Shown here: in pieces, positions 1 to 36,235 of the stretch | How positions within the stretch are numbered: the first letter of the stretch is position 1 | How the letters are laid out: every line of letters starts with the position of its first letter | IMG/VR virus record: IMGVR_UViG_2684622552_000006 | Strand: one strand, 5' to 3' | Source: a virus | Lineage: Duplodnaviria; Heunggongvirae; Uroviricota; Caudoviricetes | DNA length: 38,623 nucleotides | Notes under the pieces: generated by a model | Database searches by the model: none | Told to the model about the DNA's origin: nothing | Seen by the model: only the letters and a program-made list of their open reading frames with translations | Position numbers and translations under genes: made by a program

Positions 1-1686
1 TGCAAGCCTCACAATATAGTTAAATGCGATGTTTTTGACGGTGTTTTCCGCGTTACCAGCAGCGTTAACGGTGATGGTGTGTCCATGTGCACCCAGCGCC
101 ACAGTGTGTGCATGGGCACCAATACCTACGGTGTGGTTATGCTGACCAATATCGACTGTATGGGCGTGTGCTCCGTCAGAGCTTGACACCTGGTTGGTTC
201 CTGACACCTGAACACGTTGTTTACCCCCAATGGAGTCACCACCGTAACGACCACCGACAGTGTGCGTATGCGCTCCTGTATTGTTTGTCGTTTTTGTGCC
301 GTGGTTAAACGTGCTGACTGTTTTTGTCCCGTAATCAAACGAACTGGTTGTTTTCGTACCCAAATCCGTACTGGATGCACTGGCACTGTGGGTATGCGAT
401 TTAATGCCGTCCTGTTCCTGAGACAATACAGCGCGACCACTGGCGGGTTTGCCCTTAATTGTCCAGCCACGCATATCAGGGATCACACCAGATGGGTAAG
501 CTGCTGCAAGCAGGGGATAGGCAGCCTTGTCAAAAGTCTGCCCCTGCATAATCGCATAACCTTCCGGAACTATGTCCGAAGGCCAGGCTATTGGTGCCCC
601 CACAGGAAAAGCATTAACAGGTTCAAATCCCCGTTCAAATCCATACCCATCACGGGATGAGCGGTAATAAAGCCCTCTGTTTTTATAATCCGCACGTAGC
701 TGAAATGACCGGCAACTCCCTACACCACTAAAAAAATGAGCAACGATATATGAAGCGCCGCCGTCCATGACATTGTAAAGACCGCTTTTTGCGTTCCATG
801 GCACCCCACCATCTGAACTCGGATACTGACCTGTACACCCAAGAGAAAAAGCATTTACATCTTCAGGTGATAACTTAATGTCAGATGACAGCGCGTGACC
901 ATTAACCTTACGTCCTGAGGGCACACGCCCGTTTGCATTGTCATTAGCAGCTTTCACTGCTTTCGGAGTCGCGGCAAGCGTTTCAGAGTCACTGTTAGTG
1001 GCGCTGCTTAACTGAACAATCCCTTTTCGTGCCGTGGTGGCGTCCTGTGCAGTGTATTTGCCATCAGCAAGGTCATATGCTGTCTTAACCGCCTTTGATG
1101 TCGCTGCCTGTGTCTCACTGGTGCTGTTCACCGCACTGTTCAGTTGCACCAGACCTTTTTGCTTAGTCGTGGCATCCAGAACACCAAGAGACTCGCGGGA
1201 TTCTTTTTGCGCGCCAGCTCCGCGCGCTTTTATTTCCTTCAGGTTCTGGTCAATGCGCAGAAAAAGTCCGTCTCCCGTTGCCACATTTAACGTGATGTTT
1301 GAGGTGTCAGATACAGCAAGCCGGAACTGCATATTGACACTGACACCGCCAACCGGTTTGTCAATCGCCGGGCAGTTCGCCACGGCATACAATTCCCCTC
1401 CATCAGTCATCAGTCCCACTTCGCGGACTGTAAAACCTCCCGTTCCCGTTGGTAGCACAATTCTGGCCATGAGCTGTGTCGGCTGTTCCGGTGATACCAC
1501 CAGCTCTGCAATATCTCCACGGTAGGTTTCATTAACAAGCTGCGTTTGTGCCGGATCGGGTTTCAGCGGTTTGCCATTACTGTCGCCAACCACAAACTGT
1601 GTCAGAATAATCTGGCTACCACTGGCAAGCGCTTCCGCCTCCAGTTCTTTTCCCCGGTTAGTAATAATTGAATAATATTCAGCCAT
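1..1686 (-). CDS. Tail fibre protein, partial (C-terminus lies beyond window start)
   Basis: Not in the ORF track because no stop falls in the window. I checked every codon of this minus frame from 1686 to 1 and found no stop. ATG at 1686 overlaps the stop of the upstream gpI-like gene. N-terminus [22 protein letters not shown]; internal tandem repeats; window-proximal end has GAHAHTV / GAHGHT His-rich repeats and ends ...[20 protein letters not shown], resembling lambda Stf / T4 gp37-type fibre tips (from memory). Confidence 0.8.
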
Positions 1687-2242
1687 GAGACTCCCCGGCA
1701 AAAATATCCACATCGATATGTGCTGTCGTCGCACCTGAAATATAAAAAGCGCCATCCATCCCGATATTCGCCAGAACATCTATTTTGCTCAGATGACTGC
1801 GCAGGTTTTTAGCCCGGTCAGTAAGCTGACGAATCTGGTGATACAGTGCATCGCTGACGCCCTGACTGCTGTGAACTTCAATCCGGAATGTGTAGGGTGC
1901 AGCCTGCGGTGAATCCTGCCACCACTCCACGACAGTGGTCGGCAGGTTTACCGCCCCCAGAGAACGCCTGACCGCACCCGCCGTTCCCCGGTGCTGGTGC
2001 ACGTAAGCGGCGTCCTTAATCACCTGGCGCTTTTGTGTCTCTGTCCAGCTGTCATCCCAAAAATCGACGGCATGTTCCCACGCAAGCCACGGTAAAAGAT
2101 GTGCCGGGCAGCTGGCCGCATCTTTCACCTTACGCACCATGTTGGTATCCAGTGCGATGATGTGTTCTGTCGTCGCCTGCTCCTGCGCCCGTTCTTCATG
2201 AAATGCGCCCGGCGGCAGCAGGGAGCGAAATTTATCCGTCAT
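1679..2242 (-). CDS. Tail protein I (P2 gpI-like baseplate protein)
   Basis: 187-aa ORF, ATG at 2242, overlaps J stop; sits in the J-I-fibre order typical of P2/Mu baseplate modules. Confidence 0.65.
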
Positions 2243-3152
2243 GGCTGCTTACCTCCCTGCGGGTGACGTTGATGGCAGTACACCACGGTGCTTTTCCGGC
2301 TTCGGCTTCCAGATCAGCCACGGGAGAGATCAGTCTGACGCGAACCACACCGGATTGCTGTAAAGCGGCATAGATGGCAGATAACGGCACCACGGTGTTA
2401 ATCCGGTGAGACAGCATGGTGTAGGACTGCAAGGCTTCAATGGCATTGTTCAGAACTGTCGTGGCGTCCGGGCCGTCCGGGATCTCCAGTTCAGCCGTGA
2501 TGGCATAATTTGTGATGGTGGCGCTCTTCACCGTCACGTAGTCTGTCAATGGACGGATTTCATCGGCATTCAGTGTGCTGTTAACTTTATCCAGCAGTGG
2601 TGCAGCTGCTGTTCCGTCTCCCGTACGGGAAAGCACATACACATCAACACACCCCGGGCGGCTGTGTGTTTCGGGGCCATAAGCTTCAGCATCCAGCACA
2701 TCGGTATCCGCCGATTTCGCATGGAAGCGGTAAGCGTTGCGGGCACCCGCCGTATTTAGCTGTGCCCAGGACAACTGAATACGTTCACGAAATGCGCCGT
2801 CATCTTCCAGTTCCACTTCGACGGGGGGAACGGCATCCGGATCACCCGGTCTGATAACCTGGCGTTTAACATTGAAGGCAGCGCCAATATGATCAAGGTC
2901 TGCGCCTCTGGCGCTGGCAAGAAATACTGCCCGCACTGCATCATTGACACGCTGAAAGGCCAGCGTCAGCTGATATGCATTCACCTCTCCCTGTTTAAAC
3001 GCCGGATCGGACTCTACCAGCGCATCAAACTGCGGATCCAGCTCCTGCAGACGTGCCAGCCATCGGGAGAAAATCTCTGCGGCATCCGGCACTACAAGCG
3101 CATCAGGAACAGCGAGTTCAGACAGATTGATCACATCATAACTGTTGGGCAT
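2232..3152 (-). CDS. Baseplate J-like protein
   Basis: 306-aa ORF following the gpW-like gene; size and position match P2 gpJ / Mu gp47 baseplate wedge proteins. Confidence 0.75.
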   Translation of the reverse strand: MPNSYDVINLSELAVPDALVVPDAAEIFSRWLARLQELDPQFDALVESDPAFKQGEVNAYQLTLAFQRVNDAVRAVFLASARGADLDHIGAAFNVKRQVIRPGDPDAVPPVEVELEDDGAFRERIQLSWAQLNTAGARNAYRFHAKSADTDVLDAEAYGPETHSRPGCVDVYVLSRTGDGTAAAPLLDKVNSTLNADEIRPLTDYVTVKSATITNYAITAELEIPDGPDATTVLNNAIEALQSYTMLSHRINTVVPLSAIYAALQQSGVVRVRLISPVADLEAEAGKAPWCTAINVTRREVSSHDG

Positions 3153-3489
3153 TTAGCGTTATTTCTCCTGTTCTGACGGGTAAGCCGTCTTCTTTTTTGA
3201 TCCCTTCGATATCCAGAACACAGCCGGATTCGCCCGCCGGGAAGGTGACCATCACCCGCGTCACCTTTAAACGCGGCTCCCAGCGAGCCAGTGCAGTCGC
3301 TGAAGCGGCGATTATCCGCAGACGCGTCAGGTCATCCCGTGGGTTATCCAGCAACGAAAACAGTTCACTGCCATAGTCACGGATCAGCACACGACTCCCG
3401 ACGGGCGTGGTCAGAATGTCCCGGACAGACTGGCGCAAATGCGCCACGCCAGACAGACGTTTGCCTGTCCGGCTGTTTACACCGTTCAT
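3136..3489 (-). CDS. Baseplate assembly protein W (GPW/gp25 family)
   Basis: 117-aa ORF; size, position upstream of J and sequence style match gp25/GPW-like baseplate proteins. Confidence 0.75.
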   Translation of the reverse strand: MNGVNSRTGKRLSGVAHLRQSVRDILTTPVGSRVLIRDYGSELFSLLDNPRDDLTRLRIIAASATALARWEPRLKVTRVMVTFPAGESGCVLDIEGIKKEDGLPVRTGEITLNAQQL

Positions 3490-22028: not shown

Positions 22029-22988
22029 TTAATTTACCATCAGTCTTAGAGCCAGTTCGTCCGGATAGGGATCGAAGTAATTCTGTGTAAGCAAGTAATC
22101 ATTAGGATACTCACCCAGATAATGCTTCAGCAGAGTCAACGGCGCAAGAAGAGGTAATGTGCCAGAACGATAGTTAAGTATAACCTCGCTCAACTCTTTA
22201 CGCTGGCGTGTACTTAAGTAGTTACTAAAATACCCCTGTATATGCATCAGCACATTCGTGTGATTTTTACGTGATGCAGGTTTTCTGAGAATCGCCATCA
22301 GCTTATCACGATACACCTCAAAGTATGATTCAAGGTCCGCCCACTCGTGTATTGCAGCCACAAATGGTCCCATATCTTTATAGCCTGCCTGACTATGCGC
22401 CAATAACTGAAGCTTATAACGACTATGAAAAGCTAATAACTCTCTTCTTGATAATTTCTCCTTGTAAAGATGATTGAGCTCATGCAAAGCAAAAACTCTT
22501 TCAACAAAATTCTCACGAAGCACTGGATCATGTAATCGCCCATCCTCTTCAACCGGTAGCCAGGAAAACTTTTCCATCAAAGTGCTCGTAAATAGTCCCA
22601 CTCCATCTTTACGACCTTGATTACCATTTTCATCATAGACACGCACGCGCTCCATGCCACAGCTGGGAGATTTAGCACAAACCACAAATCCCGATACATC
22701 CTTTAATTTGTCCATATAAGAACGACTAAACTCTGTCATTCTCTCTGTCACATCCTCATTCTGGTCGTGGCTGAAACACATCCGTATATTTCCTTGCGTC
22801 GAGCGCACAAGACGTAGAGCAGGACGCGGAACTGGCAGCCCTATAGCCATTTCTGGACATACTGGTCTGAATGTTACCCATTCCACTAATTTGTCCATTA
22901 AAAAGTCAGCTCTTTTGTGACCACCATCAAAACGAACAGCAGAACCGGTCAAACAACCGCTGATTCCAATCACAGGTTTTTTTATCAT
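22029..22988 (-). CDS. DUF523/DUF1722 fusion protein (YbgA/TudS-like)
   Basis: N-terminal Cys-containing ISGCLTG...VRFDGGHKR resembles DUF523; C-terminal half resembles DUF1722. From memory only. ATG 22988 with GGGGGAG upstream. Confidence 0.5.
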   Translation of the reverse strand: MIKKPVIGISGCLTGSAVRFDGGHKRADFLMDKLVEWVTFRPVCPEMAIGLPVPRPALRLVRSTQGNIRMCFSHDQNEDVTERMTEFSRSYMDKLKDVSGFVVCAKSPSCGMERVRVYDENGNQGRKDGVGLFTSTLMEKFSWLPVEEDGRLHDPVLRENFVERVFALHELNHLYKEKLSRRELLAFHSRYKLQLLAHSQAGYKDMGPFVAAIHEWADLESYFEVYRDKLMAILRKPASRKNHTNVLMHIQGYFSNYLSTRQRKELSEVILNYRSGTLPLLAPLTLLKHYLGEYPNDYLLTQNYFDPYPDELALRLMVN

Positions 22989-23180
22989 ATTCTCCCCCTT
23001 GACTAATTCATTAACACATAAACTGTGTAGTGCACGGAATAAATTGCCTTTCTGGCGTCATCACTGACAATTTTTCTGTTATGGACTATTCCTAATATAG
23101 TATGAAAGTTCTTTAAGTGATCGGTCGTAATCATCTATCTTTCATACTTACTCTCAACTATCAAAAGTACAGGATTTATT

Positions 23181-23705
23181 ATGAAGTTATGGCCTGTGTT
23201 GACTGGCATTGCACTCTCTTTCACTCTTATAGCATGTAAGGCCCCGACACCACCTAAAGGTGTGCAGCCGATTACAAATTTTGACGCCAACCGCTACCTC
23301 GGAAAATGGTATGAAATAGCTCGCCTCGAGAACCGGTTCGAACGTGGTCTGGAACAGGTCAGCGCTACTTATGGAAAACGGAACGACGGAGGGATTCGTG
23401 TACTTAACCGTGGATACGATCCAACGAAAAATAAATGGAGCGAGAGCGAAGGTAAAGCATACTTTACTGGAGATACTAAAACTGCAGCGTTGAAGGTTTC
23501 GTTTTTTGGCCCCTTCTATGGTGGCTATAATGTAATCAAACTGGATGATGAGTATAAGTATGCTCTTGTCAGTGGTCCGAACAGAGAATACCTATGGATT
23601 CTGGCAAGGACCCCAACTATTCCAGATAAAGTAAAAGCAGACTATGTGCGAACCGCTCAAAAGTTGGGATTCAATGTCAATGAATTATTATGGGTTAAAC
23701 AATAA
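23181..23705 (+). CDS. Bacterial lipocalin (Blc-like outer-membrane lipoprotein)
   Basis: Signal peptide with lipobox (FTLIAC); NFDANRYLGKWYEIARLENRFERGLEQV and SFFGPFYGGYNVI match the E. coli Blc pattern as recalled. Opposite strand to the late operon. Confidence 0.8.
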   Translation: MKLWPVLTGIALSFTLIACKAPTPPKGVQPITNFDANRYLGKWYEIARLENRFERGLEQVSATYGKRNDGGIRVLNRGYDPTKNKWSESEGKAYFTGDTKTAALKVSFFGPFYGGYNVIKLDDEYKYALVSGPNREYLWILARTPTIPDKVKADYVRTAQKLGFNVNELLWVKQ

Positions 23706-27920: not shown

Positions 27921-28256
27921 TTATGCCTTGCCAACATCCTCTCGCTTACCAAACATATATCCTAAAGAAAGGGTTAACAAAGGTGAAAATGTAGACCAAG
28001 TTTCTTTAATAATATCAACACAACCTTGACCATTATTATTCCACAAATCATACACACATAATATAAAAATTATGGCGCTATACATATAAAGTGTGTAGGT
28101 TATTATTTTCCAGACAATACTATTTTTAGCATTTTCACCTTCACCAATCGTCTTAGCTATTTCTCCAGAGGACGCCAGACCTTTAGCGGTATTGCTAAAT
28201 TGCCCTGAGGGGGAAGCAACGTAAGTATTTTCATGTTGATCATTAAATGATGACAT
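27921..28256 (-). CDS. Hypothetical membrane protein (one predicted TM helix)
   Basis: 111 aa; hydrophobic stretch IVWKIITYTLYMYSAIIFILCVYDLW; ATG is 1 nt after the upstream stop (TAA-C-ATG); visibly AT-rich. Confidence 0.5.
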   Translation of the reverse strand: MSSFNDQHENTYVASPSGQFSNTAKGLASSGEIAKTIGEGENAKNSIVWKIITYTLYMYSAIIFILCVYDLWNNNGQGCVDIIKETWSTFSPLLTLSLGYMFGKREDVGKA

Positions 28257-28257
28257 G

Positions 28258-28614
28258 TTAATCCTTTATGATGTTAATAATTACGACCCTGCTGGTTTTA
28301 TTTACTGTCTGTATCCATACTGTTAGATAGTGCTGTACATTATCCACAATATAGAAAGGAAATGGTTCTAAAATACCTTCACCCAAACCATTCTTGAAAT
28401 TAATGAATGATACAGTATAAGACTGCCCGCCATCGCTTGGACCAGCTTCATATCGAGAAGATTTATCATCATCATCATATCTAAATGTCATATGAAATTT
28501 TTTATCATCGAACATTTTCAATGTTATACGATCATCATTATTATGAATGAGCAATGTCTTCGAATAAACAACAACACGATTACTAATTAATGTTTCTTTG
28601 ACTATATCATTCAT
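28258..28614 (-). CDS. Hypothetical small protein, first gene of the AT-rich two-gene operon
   Basis: ATG 28614 with AGGTGG 5 nt upstream (the track start at 28623 is GTG); Asp/Lys-rich; visibly AT-rich. Confidence 0.5.
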   Translation of the reverse strand: MNDIVKETLISNRVVVYSKTLLIHNNDDRITLKMFDDKKFHMTFRYDDDDKSSRYEAGPSDGGQSYTVSFINFKNGLGEGILEPFPFYIVDNVQHYLTVWIQTVNKTSRVVIINIIKD

Positions 28615-28643
28615 TTTAGCCACCTATAAAAAATAATCCTATC

Positions 28644-28672
28644 ATTATAAAACCCATCGTTTATCAATACAA
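28644..28672 (-). promoter_or_regulatory. Putative sigma70 promoter of the AT-rich two-gene operon
   Basis: On the minus strand: TTGTAT, 17-nt spacer, TATAAT, ending about 30 nt upstream of ATG 28614. Confidence 0.35.
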
Positions 28673-28753
28673 CTTGTTTCAAGTATTCAATTAGTTCCCC
28701 CCTTTAATCAAAGTCATATCTGATATGAATTTCAAAAATTGCTACCTTACCCA

Positions 28754-30467: not shown

Positions 30468-31013
30468 TCATATCGCCCCCAGCATGGTGGTGACCATCGC
30501 CATCAATGGACCAGCCAGATCCGGGTCCACACGAAACATCGACACAATGCCTTCACTCATCTCCTTCAGTTTCTGGTGGCGTGGCGCGTTGAGAATGACA
30601 GCCTGTTTTGCTTCACTGAGTTCCTTTTCCATTTCAGCCAGCCGAGCCATGAAGCTATCCTGCTCAACCAGGTAACCGCGATATTCCAGCGGTAGTACCG
30701 CCAGAATTGCCGGGGTCAGTTCACGCACGTTATTTCGGTATTTTTCAGAATCGAATTTGTTATCGAGGAAGCGGAACAGCTTCTGGCGTGCACGGCTGAC
30801 ATCATCAGGGAAATCGATGGTGCCGCCGCCCTGCTCCCGATACTCATTCACAATGAGTGCGGCAACAACATCCTGATTATCTGCAGCCGACCAGGCGCGA
30901 ACGGCATCACGGATTTTTTCGTGGCCTGGCACCTGTTTTGTTTGAGAACGATTTATCACCGCAGTCGGGCTAAATCCGCTAGTCTGTTGGTATGTAAGTG
31001 GTTGCATAGTCAT
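30468..31013 (-). CDS. Regulatory protein in the cII position (YdaT-like?)
   Basis: 181-aa ORF between cro-like gene and O; weak remembered resemblance to YdaT-family proteins (EYREQGGG segment). Assignment uncertain. Confidence 0.4.
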   Translation of the reverse strand: MTMQPLTYQQTSGFSPTAVINRSQTKQVPGHEKIRDAVRAWSAADNQDVVAALIVNEYREQGGGTIDFPDDVSRARQKLFRFLDNKFDSEKYRNNVRELTPAILAVLPLEYRGYLVEQDSFMARLAEMEKELSEAKQAVILNAPRHQKLKEMSEGIVSMFRVDPDLAGPLMAMVTTMLGAI

Positions 31014-31037
31014 TGCCTTATCAGTTAACGCCGCAGT

Positions 31038-31265
31038 TTAGGCGGCAGAATTACTCGCGTTAAACAATGGTGCGAGGTCGGGACGAATATCTGCTGGTTT
31101 AATCTTTCCACCAGTGGCTGAGACAATTTTCATTACATAGCGGGCATCAATTCCGCCACCGTGTAGCCAACGCCAAACAGTGGGTTGGGCTACACCGCAT
31201 AGATCTGCCAGTCGTTTTTGACTACCTGTAATACTGATTGCGAGTTGAATGGTTTGATTTGTCAT
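31038..31265 (-). CDS. cro: Cro-like HTH repressor (YdaS/Cro type)
   Basis: 75 aa with HTH (SQKRLADLCGVAQPTVWRWL); divergent from cI across an operator-rich intergenic region. ATG 31265 with AGGA upstream; the track start at 31271 is TTG. Confidence 0.7.
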   Translation of the reverse strand: MTNQTIQLAISITGSQKRLADLCGVAQPTVWRWLHGGGIDARYVMKIVSATGGKIKPADIRPDLAPLFNASNSAA

Positions 31266-31375
31266 TATCAATTCCTATTGGTATTGCAATGAATGGATAA
31301 TAGCAATGCGTATTAATCCAAGCAATAGCAAAACGTGTTTTGACCATCAATACGCAAGCGTATAAATTAAAACTT
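31266..31375. promoter_or_regulatory. cro-cI divergent promoter/operator region
   Basis: Contains several copies of an ATAGCAAT-like motif. Minus-strand promoter for cro: TTGCTT, 17-nt spacer, TATTAT. Plus-strand promoter for cI: TTGACC (31340..31345), 15-nt spacer, TATAAA (31361..31366), placing the start at or just before the cI ATG (leaderless-like). Confidence 0.6.
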
Positions 31376-32068
31376 ATGAAAAAAGAAACTCTTGCTGATC
31401 GCTTAAACCTAGCGATGGAACAATCTGGAATGTCTCAAGGCGCTCTTGCAAAGGCGTCTGGCGTAGCTCAACCCACAATCTGGAGACTGACAAGCGGCAA
31501 CGCGCGCGGCTCAACAAAAATTGTTGAAATAGCTAATGCATTGGGTGTTCGAACAGAGTGGCTCTCATCAGGCATAGGCCCGATGAGAAATGACGGTCAA
31601 CAATCAGGGAAGCCTGCTGTCAACCATTCCAAATACTTCAAGATTGACGTTCTTGATATAGAAGTCAGTGCCGGGCCGGGAGTCATCAACCGTGAGTTTG
31701 TAGAAGTTCTACGCTCGGTTGAGTACTCGTTTGACGATGCTCGTCACATGTTCGATGGTAGGAAGGCAGAAAATATCCGCATCATTAACGTACGCGGTGA
31801 CAGCATGTCAGGAACGATCGAACCAGGTGATCTTCTGTTCGTTGATATCACGGTTAAATCTTTCGACGGTGATGGCATCTATGCGTTTCTGTACGACGAC
31901 ACCGCCCATGTAAAGCGCCTGCAAATGATGAAGGATAAGCTGCTGGTTATCTCTGATAACAAGAGCTACTCACCGTGGGACCCGATCGAGAAAGACGAGA
32001 TGAACCGGGTGTTCATCTTCGGTAAGGTTATTGGGAGCATGCCCCAGACGTACAGGAAACATGGATAA
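31376..32068 (+). CDS. cI: CI-type prophage repressor (HTH plus S24 LexA-like peptidase)
   Basis: N-terminal HTH (MSQGALAKASGVAQPTIWRL) and C-terminal S24 autopeptidase features (VRGDSMSGTIEPGDLLFVD ... KRL); ATG 31376 has no Shine-Dalgarno sequence. Confidence 0.85.
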   Translation: MKKETLADRLNLAMEQSGMSQGALAKASGVAQPTIWRLTSGNARGSTKIVEIANALGVRTEWLSSGIGPMRNDGQQSGKPAVNHSKYFKIDVLDIEVSAGPGVINREFVEVLRSVEYSFDDARHMFDGRKAENIRIINVRGDSMSGTIEPGDLLFVDITVKSFDGDGIYAFLYDDTAHVKRLQMMKDKLLVISDNKSYSPWDPIEKDEMNRVFIFGKVIGSMPQTYRKHG

Positions 32069-32134
32069 TCAGTACTGTGCTGATGAGTCGTTTAGGGGAT
32101 AGTAAATTTAATTAGAATTAGACGAGAGCGATTT

Positions 32135-32998
32135 ATGGATTGTGACGCTTTACAGGATATAAAAATCTCTCTTAGGTATGACGGAAAAGATGCTTTAAAT
32201 CATGAAATAGATTTGAACTGCCTAGGAGAATCCCTAAAGGGTTTTTCTAAAGTTCTCTCAACAGCAGCTTCTTTCTCTGTTACACAAAAATATAGTAAAT
32301 ACATTAATTATCAGGAAGTTAAGGTTTACGCACGCGAAGCAAAAGCTAACTGCTTTACTCTTGAAGCAGTTCTTAACTTCGCCACTCAGAACCAGTTGTT
32401 CTCGGGGATCGCCGCAACTATACTTGGCGCAATACTACAATATATTTTTGCGAGAAATTCTAACAAGAAAGATGAAATGAAAGCTTTGCAGCAGTCACTT
32501 GAAAAGGCCATAGAGGCACTAGGAAACAAGGATGCTGGAACCATTGATAAGTTGATCTCTTTGATTGACCGAATGGCTGTAGAGCTTCGCCCCTCTGTAA
32601 GGCAGGCAGTATCACCTATTGGTAATACTTGCGATCAGATAAGTGTTGCAACAAATGTTGACGGCTGCCTTCTAAAAGTTAACGAGAGAGATAAAGCTGA
32701 AATTGATAGGCTTGATGATGATGAAGTTCTCGGTCTTCGTGAGTATCGTGCTTTTCTTACAGAATTTGATGCACAAAATATGACAGCTAAAATAATTTTA
32801 GATGGTGATGACTCAAAAAAGAGAATCACTGCTGAAATTAGCGATCCAGCTGCAGGAAAGAAGAATAACCCGTATATTAGAGCTCTTAGTGCATATATAT
32901 CAACCAAAGGTGATCCATCTGCAGTATTCACTATAACCGCAAAGGCTACTGTTAAAAAAGGCCAGATAAACAGGTTATTTATTGTAGATGCGAAATGA
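32135..32998 (+). CDS. Hypothetical protein in the rexA-equivalent slot, co-directional with cI
   Basis: 287-aa ORF starting 67 nt after the cI stop, visibly AT-rich, followed by a strong terminator; one central hydrophobic segment ([18 protein letters not shown]); no family recognised. Confidence 0.6.
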
Positions 32999-33002
32999 TT
33001 TC

Positions 33003-33029
33003 CCCGGCCGTCGTGCCGGGTTTTCTTTT
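33003..33029 (+). terminator. Rho-independent terminator after the cI-linked gene
   Basis: Stem CCCGGC/GCCGGG with 6-nt loop followed by TTTTCTTTT. Confidence 0.7.
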
Positions 33030-33149
33030 GCCTCCCCTCATCACACAAACCGTTCAAAAAACCACCACGACCTCGCTTCAGTTATCGCTATGCGATGCAA
33101 GTCACAAAATTAATTCTTTTTGCTATCAAACATTTAATATCAAAACACA

Positions 33150-33198
33150 CCAACCAATAGCAATAAGTATTGATATAACCAATAGCAATAGCTATTAT
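33150..33198 (+). promoter_or_regulatory. pL-like promoter with operator repeats
   Basis: TTGATA (33170..33175), 17-nt spacer, TATTAT (33193..33198); two copies of CCAATAGCAATA overlap it, the same motif family as in the cro-cI region. Confidence 0.6.
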
Positions 33199-33396
33199 CA
33201 CCATATCGCAACAACACAACGATACGGCAACCACCTGATTCACCGTTGCGATGACCGCTTAGATCCGCAGCTTGAATTTCAGCAGGCTCCGGGGAGTGCG
33301 AGGGGTGAAGCGGACGCGTGAACGTCGGTGTGACCAGCTGAAATCAACTCAACTCAACACTTCATACCTCAGTCGCTTCAACGAGGCGGCTTAGTT

Positions 33397-33687
33397 ATGA
33401 CAACCGGCGGCCATCCACCGCCTGAATACGCGCAGAAGTCTCTATATGTTCAGCAGCCCAGCTTACGGGCAGGAGTTTTTATGGTTCATCAACATTACGG
33501 AACGCAGACCGTTAATCGCGGTGCGGTCATGCCAGGAATGCTGGTCAAACACAAAGATGGTACCTGGACTGCATCAGCTAATTTACGCGGACGGCTTTAT
33601 CTGCATCGCGGCATCGAGCGCACTTATACCCGTGATTTGCTCGTGGAAGTTTTTCTCGACGGACGCGGTAACGGCCTGAATCACTAA
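33397..33687 (+). CDS. Hypothetical protein, first gene of the leftward early operon
   Basis: 96-aa ORF with GAGG upstream; occupies the position where lambda has N but is not Arg-rich or N-like. Confidence 0.35.
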   Translation: MTTGGHPPPEYAQKSLYVQQPSLRAGVFMVHQHYGTQTVNRGAVMPGMLVKHKDGTWTASANLRGRLYLHRGIERTYTRDLLVEVFLDGRGNGLNH

Positions 33688-35527: not shown

Positions 35528-35685
35528 AGCATACTCACGATAATATCCGGGTAGGCACGATCACTTTCGTCTACTCCGTTACAAAGCGAGGCTGGGTATT
35601 TCCCGGCCTTTCTGTTATCCGAAATCCCCTGAAAGCACAGCGGCTGGCTGAGAAGATAAATAATAAACGGGGGCTGTATGACTGA
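35524..35685 (+). CDS. Small hypothetical protein, translationally coupled
   Basis: 53-aa ORF translated by hand ([24 protein letters not shown]...); ATG overlaps the exo stop and its stop overlaps the methyltransferase start. Confidence 0.3.
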
Positions 35686-36235
35686 TTTCACCGGAAGCAA
35701 TACTCCTGCCGAACATCGCGACAGCTGGCGCACACCACCAGAGATTTTTGCTGCGCTTAATGCAGAGTTCGTTTTTCAACTTGATGCTGCCGCCAGCGAA
35801 AAAAACCGACTATGTCGGCTTTTTATCTCACAGGAGCAGAACACATTAACCACTTCATGGCCTGAAGCAATGGGATATGCCTCTGGTTATGTCTGGTTGA
35901 ATCCACCATACAGCAATATTTCCCCTTTTGTGAAAAAGGCAGCCACTGAAAACAAATTCAGTAGTGTGGGATGTGTAATGTTATTGCCTGCTGACACATC
36001 TGTCGGATGGTTTCATGAAGCGATACAAACCGCCAGTGAGGTCAGATTCATCACGGCAGGACGACTGGCATTTATTAACCCACTCACCGAGAAACCCGTC
36101 AGTGGAAATAATAAAGGCTCGATGCTCATTATCTGGCACCCATACCCCCGTACACACTGCCACTTTACGACCGTTGATCGTGGAGAGTTGATGGCGTTCG
36201 GCTCAAGGATTCTTGCCCGTCGGGAGGCTGCATGA
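35678..36235 (+). CDS. Phage N6-adenine DNA methyltransferase (Dam-type)
   Basis: 185 aa with the NPPY catalytic motif (VWLNPPYSNI) and overall resemblance to small phage-encoded N6A methylases. Confidence 0.8.
   Translation: MTDFTGSNTPAEHRDSWRTPPEIFAALNAEFVFQLDAAASEKNRLCRLFISQEQNTLTTSWPEAMGYASGYVWLNPPYSNISPFVKKAATENKFSSVGCVMLLPADTSVGWFHEAIQTASEVRFITAGRLAFINPLTEKPVSGNNKGSMLIIWHPYPRTHCHFTTVDRGELMAFGSRILARREAA

Follow-up and report, generated by a model that had tools for sequence, protein, structure and literature searches.

A DUF7946/DUF7947 gene in the repressor operon of a lambdoid phage as a candidate single-gene exclusion function

Introduction

One of the questions that a prophage raises is what a gene directly behind the cI repressor gene does for the lysogen. 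In lambda this slot, the classic location for exclusion genes expressed in the lysogen, holds the type case, rexA-rexB. In this paper we looked at an open reading frame (ORF) of 287 amino acids (aa) that fills the slot in a stretch of DNA of 38,623 nucleotides (nt) from a virus of the Caudoviricetes (IMG/VR record IMGVR_UViG_2684622552_000006), a lambda-like E. coli prophage; the whole stretch is called the window below. A first-pass annotation, made from the sequence alone, had recognised no family for this ORF and had proposed it as a candidate for an exclusion or abortive-infection function. We find that the ORF is almost certainly a real gene in a cI-operon cassette and that it belongs to an already catalogued family, of which protein 40A of phage phi80 (gp40A) is the only named relative. 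Its product may be a lysogen-expressed single-gene exclusion or abortive-infection protein, a reading that we hold as tentative and that is weighed below against its rivals.

The repressor operon and its last gene

The operon is made up of the following features, given with coordinates in the window and strand:

31299..31347, no strand assigned: OR-type operator region, with a 49-nt repeat in common with OL (direct repeat D1 against 33156-33204, 76% identity)
31340..31368, plus strand: pRM-like promoter, TTGACC, 17 nt, TAAATT (consensus scan, sequence), 7 nt 5' of the cI ATG
31376..32068, plus strand: cI-type repressor gene with helix-turn-helix (HTH) and S24 peptidase domains (Pfam Peptidase_S24 1.5e-18, HTH_3 1.5e-6)
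32135..32998, plus strand: the 287-aa ORF, a DUF7946/DUF7947 protein (phi80 gp40A family, PHROG 5147), with an ATG start and TGA at 32996-32998
33003..33029, plus strand: intrinsic terminator of the repressor operon, a CCCGGC/GCCGGG stem at 33003-33020 and then TTTTCTTTT; -12.1 kcal/mol
33156..33204, plus strand: OL-type operators and pL-like promoter (TTGATA 33170-33175, 17-nt spacer, TATTAT 33193-33198), inside the 49-nt repeat

The repressor gene is annotated as cI in phages that are 96-98% identical, and its start is most likely the ATG at 31376 and not the TTG at 31340 that appears in the ORF list. By its likeness to lambda PRM, the pRM-like site would be the maintenance promoter, and its end 7 nt before the cI ATG suggests a leaderless or near-leaderless cI mRNA of the lambda PRM kind. 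When the lambda layout was checked, the rexA/rexB-equivalent slot that had been assigned to the ORF proved right, with the ORF lying on the same strand as cI, between the cI stop and the terminator and 5' of OL/pL. A spacer of 66 nt (32069-32134) separates the ORF from cI; the 67 nt given earlier is the coordinate difference. A consensus scan of the plus strand of this spacer found neither promoter-like nor terminator-like sites, and its RNA structure is not significant (z = -1.0). The terminator stem, with six GC pairs, begins 4 nt past the ORF TGA and stands upstream of the pL-like promoter (33170-33198), as had been described. From the spacer without signals and the common terminator, the ORF and cI are probably co-transcribed, and the position of the ORF inside the repressor operon, between the cI stop and the terminator, points to its expression in the lysogen from the repressor-maintenance promoter. 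The OL/pL layout agrees with the annotated OL/pL of phi80, and Gam, Bet and Exo follow downstream of the pL-like promoter on the same strand.

The AT-richness of the ORF, which had been noted by eye, is borne out by its GC content of 38.4%, against 48.2% for cI and 49.9% for the window. The coding frame is under strong purifying selection: the ratio of nonsynonymous to synonymous substitution rates (dN/dS) is 0.055 for a homologue of 91% amino acid identity and 0.024 for one of 89%, these being two pairs only, with synonymous sites saturated in the remaining pairs. A 140-aa ORF on the minus strand (32635-33057) runs across the terminator and the last third of the gene. This antisense ORF is in all likelihood a shadow, since it lies over a strongly constrained coding frame and is without independent support.

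An exchangeable cassette and its alternatives

The proposal that the gene was acquired horizontally is supported by comparison with close relatives of the phage. In PhiR30_1 and 4A7, whose cI and pL regions are 96-98% identical to those of the window, homology ends at 32067-32069, at the cI stop, and returns at 33003. This position is the first base of the terminator stem, and the homology of PhiR30_1, 4A7 and PhiR47_2 restarts exactly there. The two breakpoints define the exchanged unit, and the terminator is thus part of the backbone, common to phages with other cassettes:

32070..33002, plus strand: exchangeable cargo cassette of 933 bp, the 66-nt leader and the ORF, delimited by homology breakpoints, 38.4% GC

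The cassette was found in 77 of 5426 complete E. coli genomes (1.4%), always as one chromosomal copy and at identities of at least 99%; parts of the cI-to-pL query, on the cI side, the pL side or both, were matched in 2210 of the same genomes.

What takes the place of the gene in other phages could be read from a survey of the slot in related prophages, a check proposed with the first-pass annotation, and the other cargo consists of defence candidates. PhiR30_1 carries a DUF6932 protein and a 310-aa protein that match PADLOC PDC-M63A and PDC-M63B. PhiR47_2, 4A7 and their relatives carry a 357-aa protein and an ASCH protein that match PDC-M11A and PDC-M11B, and this PDC-M11AB cargo is annotated in PhiR47_2 and 4A7 as 'GevT toxin/GevA antitoxin'; a literature search for GevT/GevA returned unrelated papers only. 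Like the ORF, both pairs occupy the interval from the cI stop to the terminator, in phages whose cI is the same or related, but they are two-gene cassettes and unrelated to it.

Some copies of the cassette are damaged. Of the 77 carrier E. coli genomes, at least 4 have the cassette region interrupted by IS1 (L103, which is VG1046-3E9 1566-3206, and H41, H56 and H69). In L103, the one in which ORF interruption was checked, the ORF itself is broken and a 173-aa C-terminal remnant is left. Three IMG/VR copies (L040, L041 and L047) appear frameshifted or truncated. The IS1 interruptions and damaged copies could mean that the gene is costly, or simply that IS1 prefers AT-rich targets.

Family membership

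That no family could be recognised for the protein turned out to be wrong, as profile searches place it in the DUF7946/DUF7947, PHROG 5147 and phi80 gp40A family. Both Pfam domains are found above their gathering thresholds and in N-to-C order: DUF7946 at aa 11-191 with 187.2 bits against a cut-off of 27 (E 3.8e-55), and DUF7947 at aa 201-287 with 67.1 bits against a cut-off of 27 (E 1.4e-18). PHROG 5147, which is listed as of unknown function, is matched over the full length (E 1.5e-178), identical copies in RefSeq are already named 'DUF7946 domain-containing protein', and phi80 protein 40A aligns over aa 1-285 with 62% identity (tblastn). No function is recorded for DUF7946/DUF7947, PHROG 5147 or phi80 gp40A, and no mention of DUF7946, DUF7947, PF25678/9, phrog_5147, PDC-S42 or 'phi80 40A' was found in the open-access literature.

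An exhaustive profile search gave 499 family clusters at 50% identity. Among the best 150 family matches listed, 104 of 149 have a length of 265-320 aa and the rest are mostly shorter and partial. A second database search with a deep alignment brought in only seven more proteins (P0215-P0221), of which three are fragments. Several other leads were set aside. The 'acetate kinase superfamily' note on the phi80 gp40A record finds support in none of the profile searches, weak holin and formate-dehydrogenase transmembrane matches (E > 0.1) are noise, and a paper on Tai (tail assembly interference) has no bearing on this gene.

Predicted structure and conserved residues

The structure was modelled with AlphaFold2 (AF2). 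With 19 sequences the predicted local distance difference test (pLDDT) score was a mediocre 76, and with a 120-sequence alignment it rose to 91.3, with a predicted TM-score (pTM) of 0.74. In the model the predicted elements are, from the N to the C terminus, a strand (9-16), a helix (27-50), a hairpin (62-82), the hydrophobic helix (87-108), three helices (112-128, 134-150 and 152-158), a hairpin (168-182), a further helix (184-192) and a barrel (197-286). The two domains and the helix lie in the window as follows:

32165..32707, plus strand: DUF7946 region, aa 11-191, a small N-terminal alpha/beta domain, hydrophobic helix, helical segment and beta-hairpin
32396..32452, plus strand: conserved hydrophobic helix rich in small residues, aa 88-106 (Kyte-Doolittle 19-residue mean 1.85, conserved position)
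32735..32995, plus strand: DUF7947, aa 201-287, a C-terminal OB-fold beta-barrel

The C-terminal domain is modelled as a closed beta-barrel of five strands in which a helix links strands 3 and 4, as is expected of an OB fold. Known OB-fold proteins (SilF/CusF; RPA, PriB, SSB and Ten1; the B subunits of AB5 toxins) share only 5-15% sequence identity with it, and the protein of the window differs from them in that its OB domain is fused to a 190-residue region without a match in the PDB. It also differs from CusF/SilF in having no signal peptide and no conserved His/Met/Met/Trp metal ligands. A sequence profile search of the PDB gave noise only (best E 0.018, prefoldin). Among the predicted viral structures of BFVD, full-length alignments were obtained with three phage proteins only, all of them uncharacterised (E 1e-6 to 1e-10).

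Analysis of the family alignment indicates eight near-invariant residues, G17, S33, G36, P161, G163, D237, P238 and Y247, followed by Y15, A20, H23, N245 and K270 with 83-88% conservation and C166 with 78%. An N-terminal motif, Y15-x-G17-x-x-A20-x-x-H23...S33-x-x-G36, lies in the DUF7946 region. No catalytic motif was recognised among the conserved residues. The net charge of the OB domain has a family median of -2, being acidic in most members, and is +4 in the protein of the window; Y247, K270, R230 and K219 are conserved.

The hydrophobic helix

The single central hydrophobic segment that had been seen in the protein is indeed there, at aa 88-106. It is made up of 19 uncharged residues, and its Kyte-Doolittle mean is the highest among the window proteins tested. 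In most full-length homologues sampled the hydrophobic maximum falls at or near the same position, with a value of at least 1.6 in 104 of 166. The flanks are asymmetric: the 15 residues on the N-terminal side hold on average 0.3 Lys/Arg and the 15 on the C-terminal side 3.5, and the C-terminal flank is the richer one in 118 of 120 sequences. By this classic positive-inside signature the helical and OB half would lie in the cytoplasm. The helix has one strongly hydrophobic face (88/89, 96/97, 100/101 and 104/105), and its other face forms a Gly/Ala/Ser stripe (90/91, 93/94, 98/99, 102 and 106), a pattern typical of tight helix-helix packing. The helix could anchor the protein in the membrane, or lie buried until activation lets it insert.

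Genomic contexts of the family

Is the linkage to a repressor gene peculiar to this phage? We surveyed 86 homologous loci from IMG/VR, GTDB genomes and phi80. At 67 of them the gene is preceded, at a distance of at most 300 nt, by a same-strand ORF for a cI-like repressor, in most cases accompanied by a divergent cro-like gene, and at 8 more the repressor lies within 1.5 kb upstream with extra cargo genes between. The repressors themselves are diverse, falling into 19 clusters at 60% identity, and an S24 domain was found in 25 of 41 distinct upstream proteins. An identical ORF with an identical leader also occurs behind repressors that have different N-terminal DNA-binding parts.

The arrangement is also seen beyond the Enterobacterales. 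In Vitreoscilla sp. C1 (L091 5251-9274) a cI-like S24 repressor gene, a DUF7946/7947 gene and a 537-aa SIR2_2 gene follow each other on one strand, which may be a stacked defence locus in a repressor operon. A homologue of 36% identity is located after cI and two small genes. Of the distant homologues that stand outside prophage immunity regions, one adjoins HigB/HigA and another shares its island with TIR, PIN, a type I restriction-modification specificity subunit and IS1595. A few homologues are flanked on one side by portal/scaffold-type genes and on the other by a putative capsid gene; in L080 the homologue lies in an accessory-gene island within the head-gene module, and from their first residues we take products of this island to have KilA-N- and HTH-like starts. 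In a distant subfamily (L097/L098 5373-6852) there is a conserved upstream ORF of 226 aa, without a family, that shares 53 nt with the DUF7946 gene and may encode a partner specific to this subfamily. Across contexts no conserved partner gene was seen, so the protein appears to act alone.

Comparison with Rex, phi80 gp40A and sister families

The gene resembles lambda rexA/rexB in its location downstream of cI in the maintenance operon, before the terminator and OL/pL, and in its presumed expression in the lysogen, and RexA (279 aa) is similar in length to the protein of the window. RexA and RexB are, however, a soluble sensor and a polytopic membrane protein, while here a single ORF with one hydrophobic helix fills the cassette. 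Homology to either was rejected, as hhalign of the 120-sequence family profile gave probabilities of 0.2% for RexA and 0.1% for RexB. The likeness to Rex is positional, possibly functional, and not one of membership.

The nearest named protein, phi80 gp40A (PHI80_46, AFV29182.1), is 62% identical over the full length and has the same cI-OL/pL slot, strand and Pfam architecture. It differs in the repressor upstream and in its spacer of 136 nt. Lysogens of Lula/phi80 interfere with other phages, in that T4 fails to plate and the P1 yield is 10-fold lower, unlike in lambda lysogens, and the causal gene was not identified (PMC2885432). Based on its location in the repressor operon, gp40A is a candidate for this interference. 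The phi80 cI-40A operon (L001 3154-5000) was kept in the phi80dlacZdeltaM15 remnant of cloning strains, and the cI-40A segment is 100% conserved in DH5alpha, DH10B, TOP10, NEB 5-alpha/10-beta, JM83, XL10-Gold and EPI300. These strains thus carry a homologue of the window gene together with its repressor.

Other families are related more remotely. PADLOC PDC-S42, a single-gene defence candidate, matches the protein in part only (aa 9-127 against model positions 4-113 of 302, E 1.5e-4) and is matched by 37 of 120 family members (best E 3e-8). The NCBIfam model LAPAL_fam, named 'putative phage structural protein', reaches 26.2 bits against a cut-off of 60, over the N-terminal 116 positions only, and is matched weakly by 70 of 120 members (best E 1e-10). 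PDC-S42, LAPAL_fam, PHROG 3243 and PHROG 13337 are like the window family in their length of ~290-300 aa and in a remote homology over the N-terminal 110-190 residues. By sequence all four are remote sister families whose matches are partial and sub-threshold, and none has an experimentally known function.

What the protein may do for the lysogen

Among the readings weighed here, a single-gene exclusion or abortive-infection protein encoded by the prophage is the most likely one; for an anti-phage function of some kind the arguments are nearly in balance. It is suggested by the anatomy of the post-cI cassette, the linkage to repressors and the defence-type cargo that fills the slot elsewhere. 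The toxin-antitoxin (TA) and TIR neighbours of distant homologues, the PDC-S42 sister family, the conserved helix and the purifying selection point the same way, as do the OB fold, the lack of a conserved partner gene and the phenotype of the related phi80/Lula lysogen. In the mechanism that we propose, the cytoplasmic OB-fold half would recognise a product of the incoming phage, and the hydrophobic helix would then drive self-association in, or insertion into, the inner membrane. Infection would be halted through lost membrane integrity or by a membrane-level block, and a single polypeptide would be a functional analogue of RexA plus RexB, not a homologue. We consider this OB-fold and membrane-helix mechanism in particular doubtful. 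The broader proposal, that DUF7946/DUF7947 is a novel type of single-polypeptide prophage immunity family in which an OB-fold sensor is joined to a latent membrane-active helix, carried in the repressor operons of numerous heteroimmune lambdoid prophages in Enterobacterales and Neisseriales, is likewise rather unlikely.

Several points weigh against an exclusion function or against parts of this mechanism. Cloning strains with cI-40A are in everyday use for growing the usual laboratory phages, T4 derivatives on DH5alpha among them. If this is right, gp40A alone is probably not the T4 block, and any defence would have a narrower range, perhaps against temperate phages. Domain, profile and structure searches revealed no effector-type domain (nuclease, TIR or kinase). 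The OB domain is acidic in most members, which makes a generic role in sensing or binding nucleic acid unlikely. As for the helix, presumed-soluble ORFs of the window (the O-like replication protein and unannotated ORFs of 636 and 757 aa) reach Kyte-Doolittle values of 1.65-1.70, little below the 1.85 of the helix, and after this internal control a hydropathy threshold was rejected as sole proof of a transmembrane helix. In some distant members the small-residue positions are taken by charged residues, and the high pTM of the model may mean that the helix is packed or buried inside a compact fold. Among the surveyed loci 11 of 86 have no upstream repressor, and one distant homologue is an orphan beside mraZ. 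The PDC families of PADLOC are unverified candidates, and one native-host test saw no defence by PDC-M63AB (PMC12409345). Functional tests of any family member were not found in the open-access literature.

One rival explanation is exclusion at the level of entry, by a single-pass inner-membrane protein, with its N domain outside and its helical and OB half inside, that blocks or intercepts the genome injection of incoming phages without killing the cell. The positive-inside flanks (118 of 120 sequences), the net acidic N-terminal domain, the conserved position of the helix and the location in the lysogen operon all agree with such a topology and role. Yet there is no signal peptide, an 87-residue N-terminal tail would have to cross the membrane, the compact AF2 model is ill-suited to domains on opposite sides of a membrane, and PHROG families annotated for superinfection exclusion are absent among the matches, which makes entry exclusion improbable. 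Alternatively, the protein may be intrinsic to the prophage and tune the lysis-lysogeny switch or induction, and not act in defence at all; RexA has been proposed to act on the CI/Cro switch. The tight linkage to repressors favours such a regulator, and so do the unusually high spontaneous phage titres of phi80/Lula lysogens (PMC2885432). A regulator is hard to reconcile, however, with a 100%-identical cassette behind repressors with different DNA-binding domains, with 19 repressor types in the family, and with phages of the same cI that lack the cassette and carry unrelated cargo. Some homologues lie in non-prophage islands, and no DNA-binding domain was detected beyond the mostly acidic OB fold. 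We therefore consider it still less probable than entry exclusion.

The gene could also be lysogenic-conversion or selfish cargo unrelated to phages, such as an envelope or stress fitness factor. We consider this unlikely, as the OB domain has no conserved Met/His/Trp metal ligands, there is no signal peptide, the positive flank would put that domain in the cytoplasm, the neighbourhoods are rich in defence and TA genes, and a sister family is a PADLOC defence candidate. Least credible of all is a structural or assembly protein of the phage, as the name of LAPAL_fam would have it. Its weak matches in 70 of 120 members (best E 1e-10) and the few homologues flanked by portal/scaffold-type and putative capsid genes speak for it, but all of the matches are below the curated cut-off (26 against 60 bits for the protein of the window) and the L080 copy sits in an accessory island and not at a conserved structural position. 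Moreover, the gene lies in a lambdoid repressor operon, expressed while structural genes are off, and near-identical phages lack it.

Other features of the window

Some observations elsewhere in the window may be of use to others. At 30468-31271 on the minus strand the positions of cro and cII hold YdaS-type (77 aa) and YdaT-type (181 aa) proteins, by which the immunity module is Rac-like rather than lambda-like. At 27921-28750 (minus strand), just downstream of the P-like replication gene, there is a second strongly AT-rich stretch (GC 27-38%) with two small ORFs, of 111 aa (no family) and of 121 aa (DUF6864), and the stretch has the look of a further cargo cassette. The region 22029-23705 contains a YbgA-like gene (2-thiouracil desulfurase domain and DUF1722, 319 aa, minus strand) and a lipocalin gene (174 aa, plus strand), which are unusual cargo in a lambdoid phage. 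The first ORF past pL (33397-33687, plus strand, 96 aa) is in the position of N and has no Pfam match, and related phages annotate Kil nearby. In the pL operon exo is followed by a gene for a phage Dam-type N6-adenine methyltransferase (35678-36235, plus strand).

Implications

Lysogen-expressed cargo behind cI is well known and the gene family is already catalogued; what the analysis offers is a defence candidate that is cheap to test. To the lambda rexAB type case the cassette would add a compact and widespread protein family (one gene of ~290 aa), none of whose members has been characterised and whose fold has for the most part no counterpart in the PDB. It is easily testable because the commonest cloning strains hold, in their phi80 remnant, a homologue of 62% identity with its own cI. 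If defence proves true, the family would be a new single-gene system and might help to explain the interference of phi80 lysogens with other phages. If it proves false, the gene would serve as a warning against treating every post-cI cargo gene as an immunity gene.

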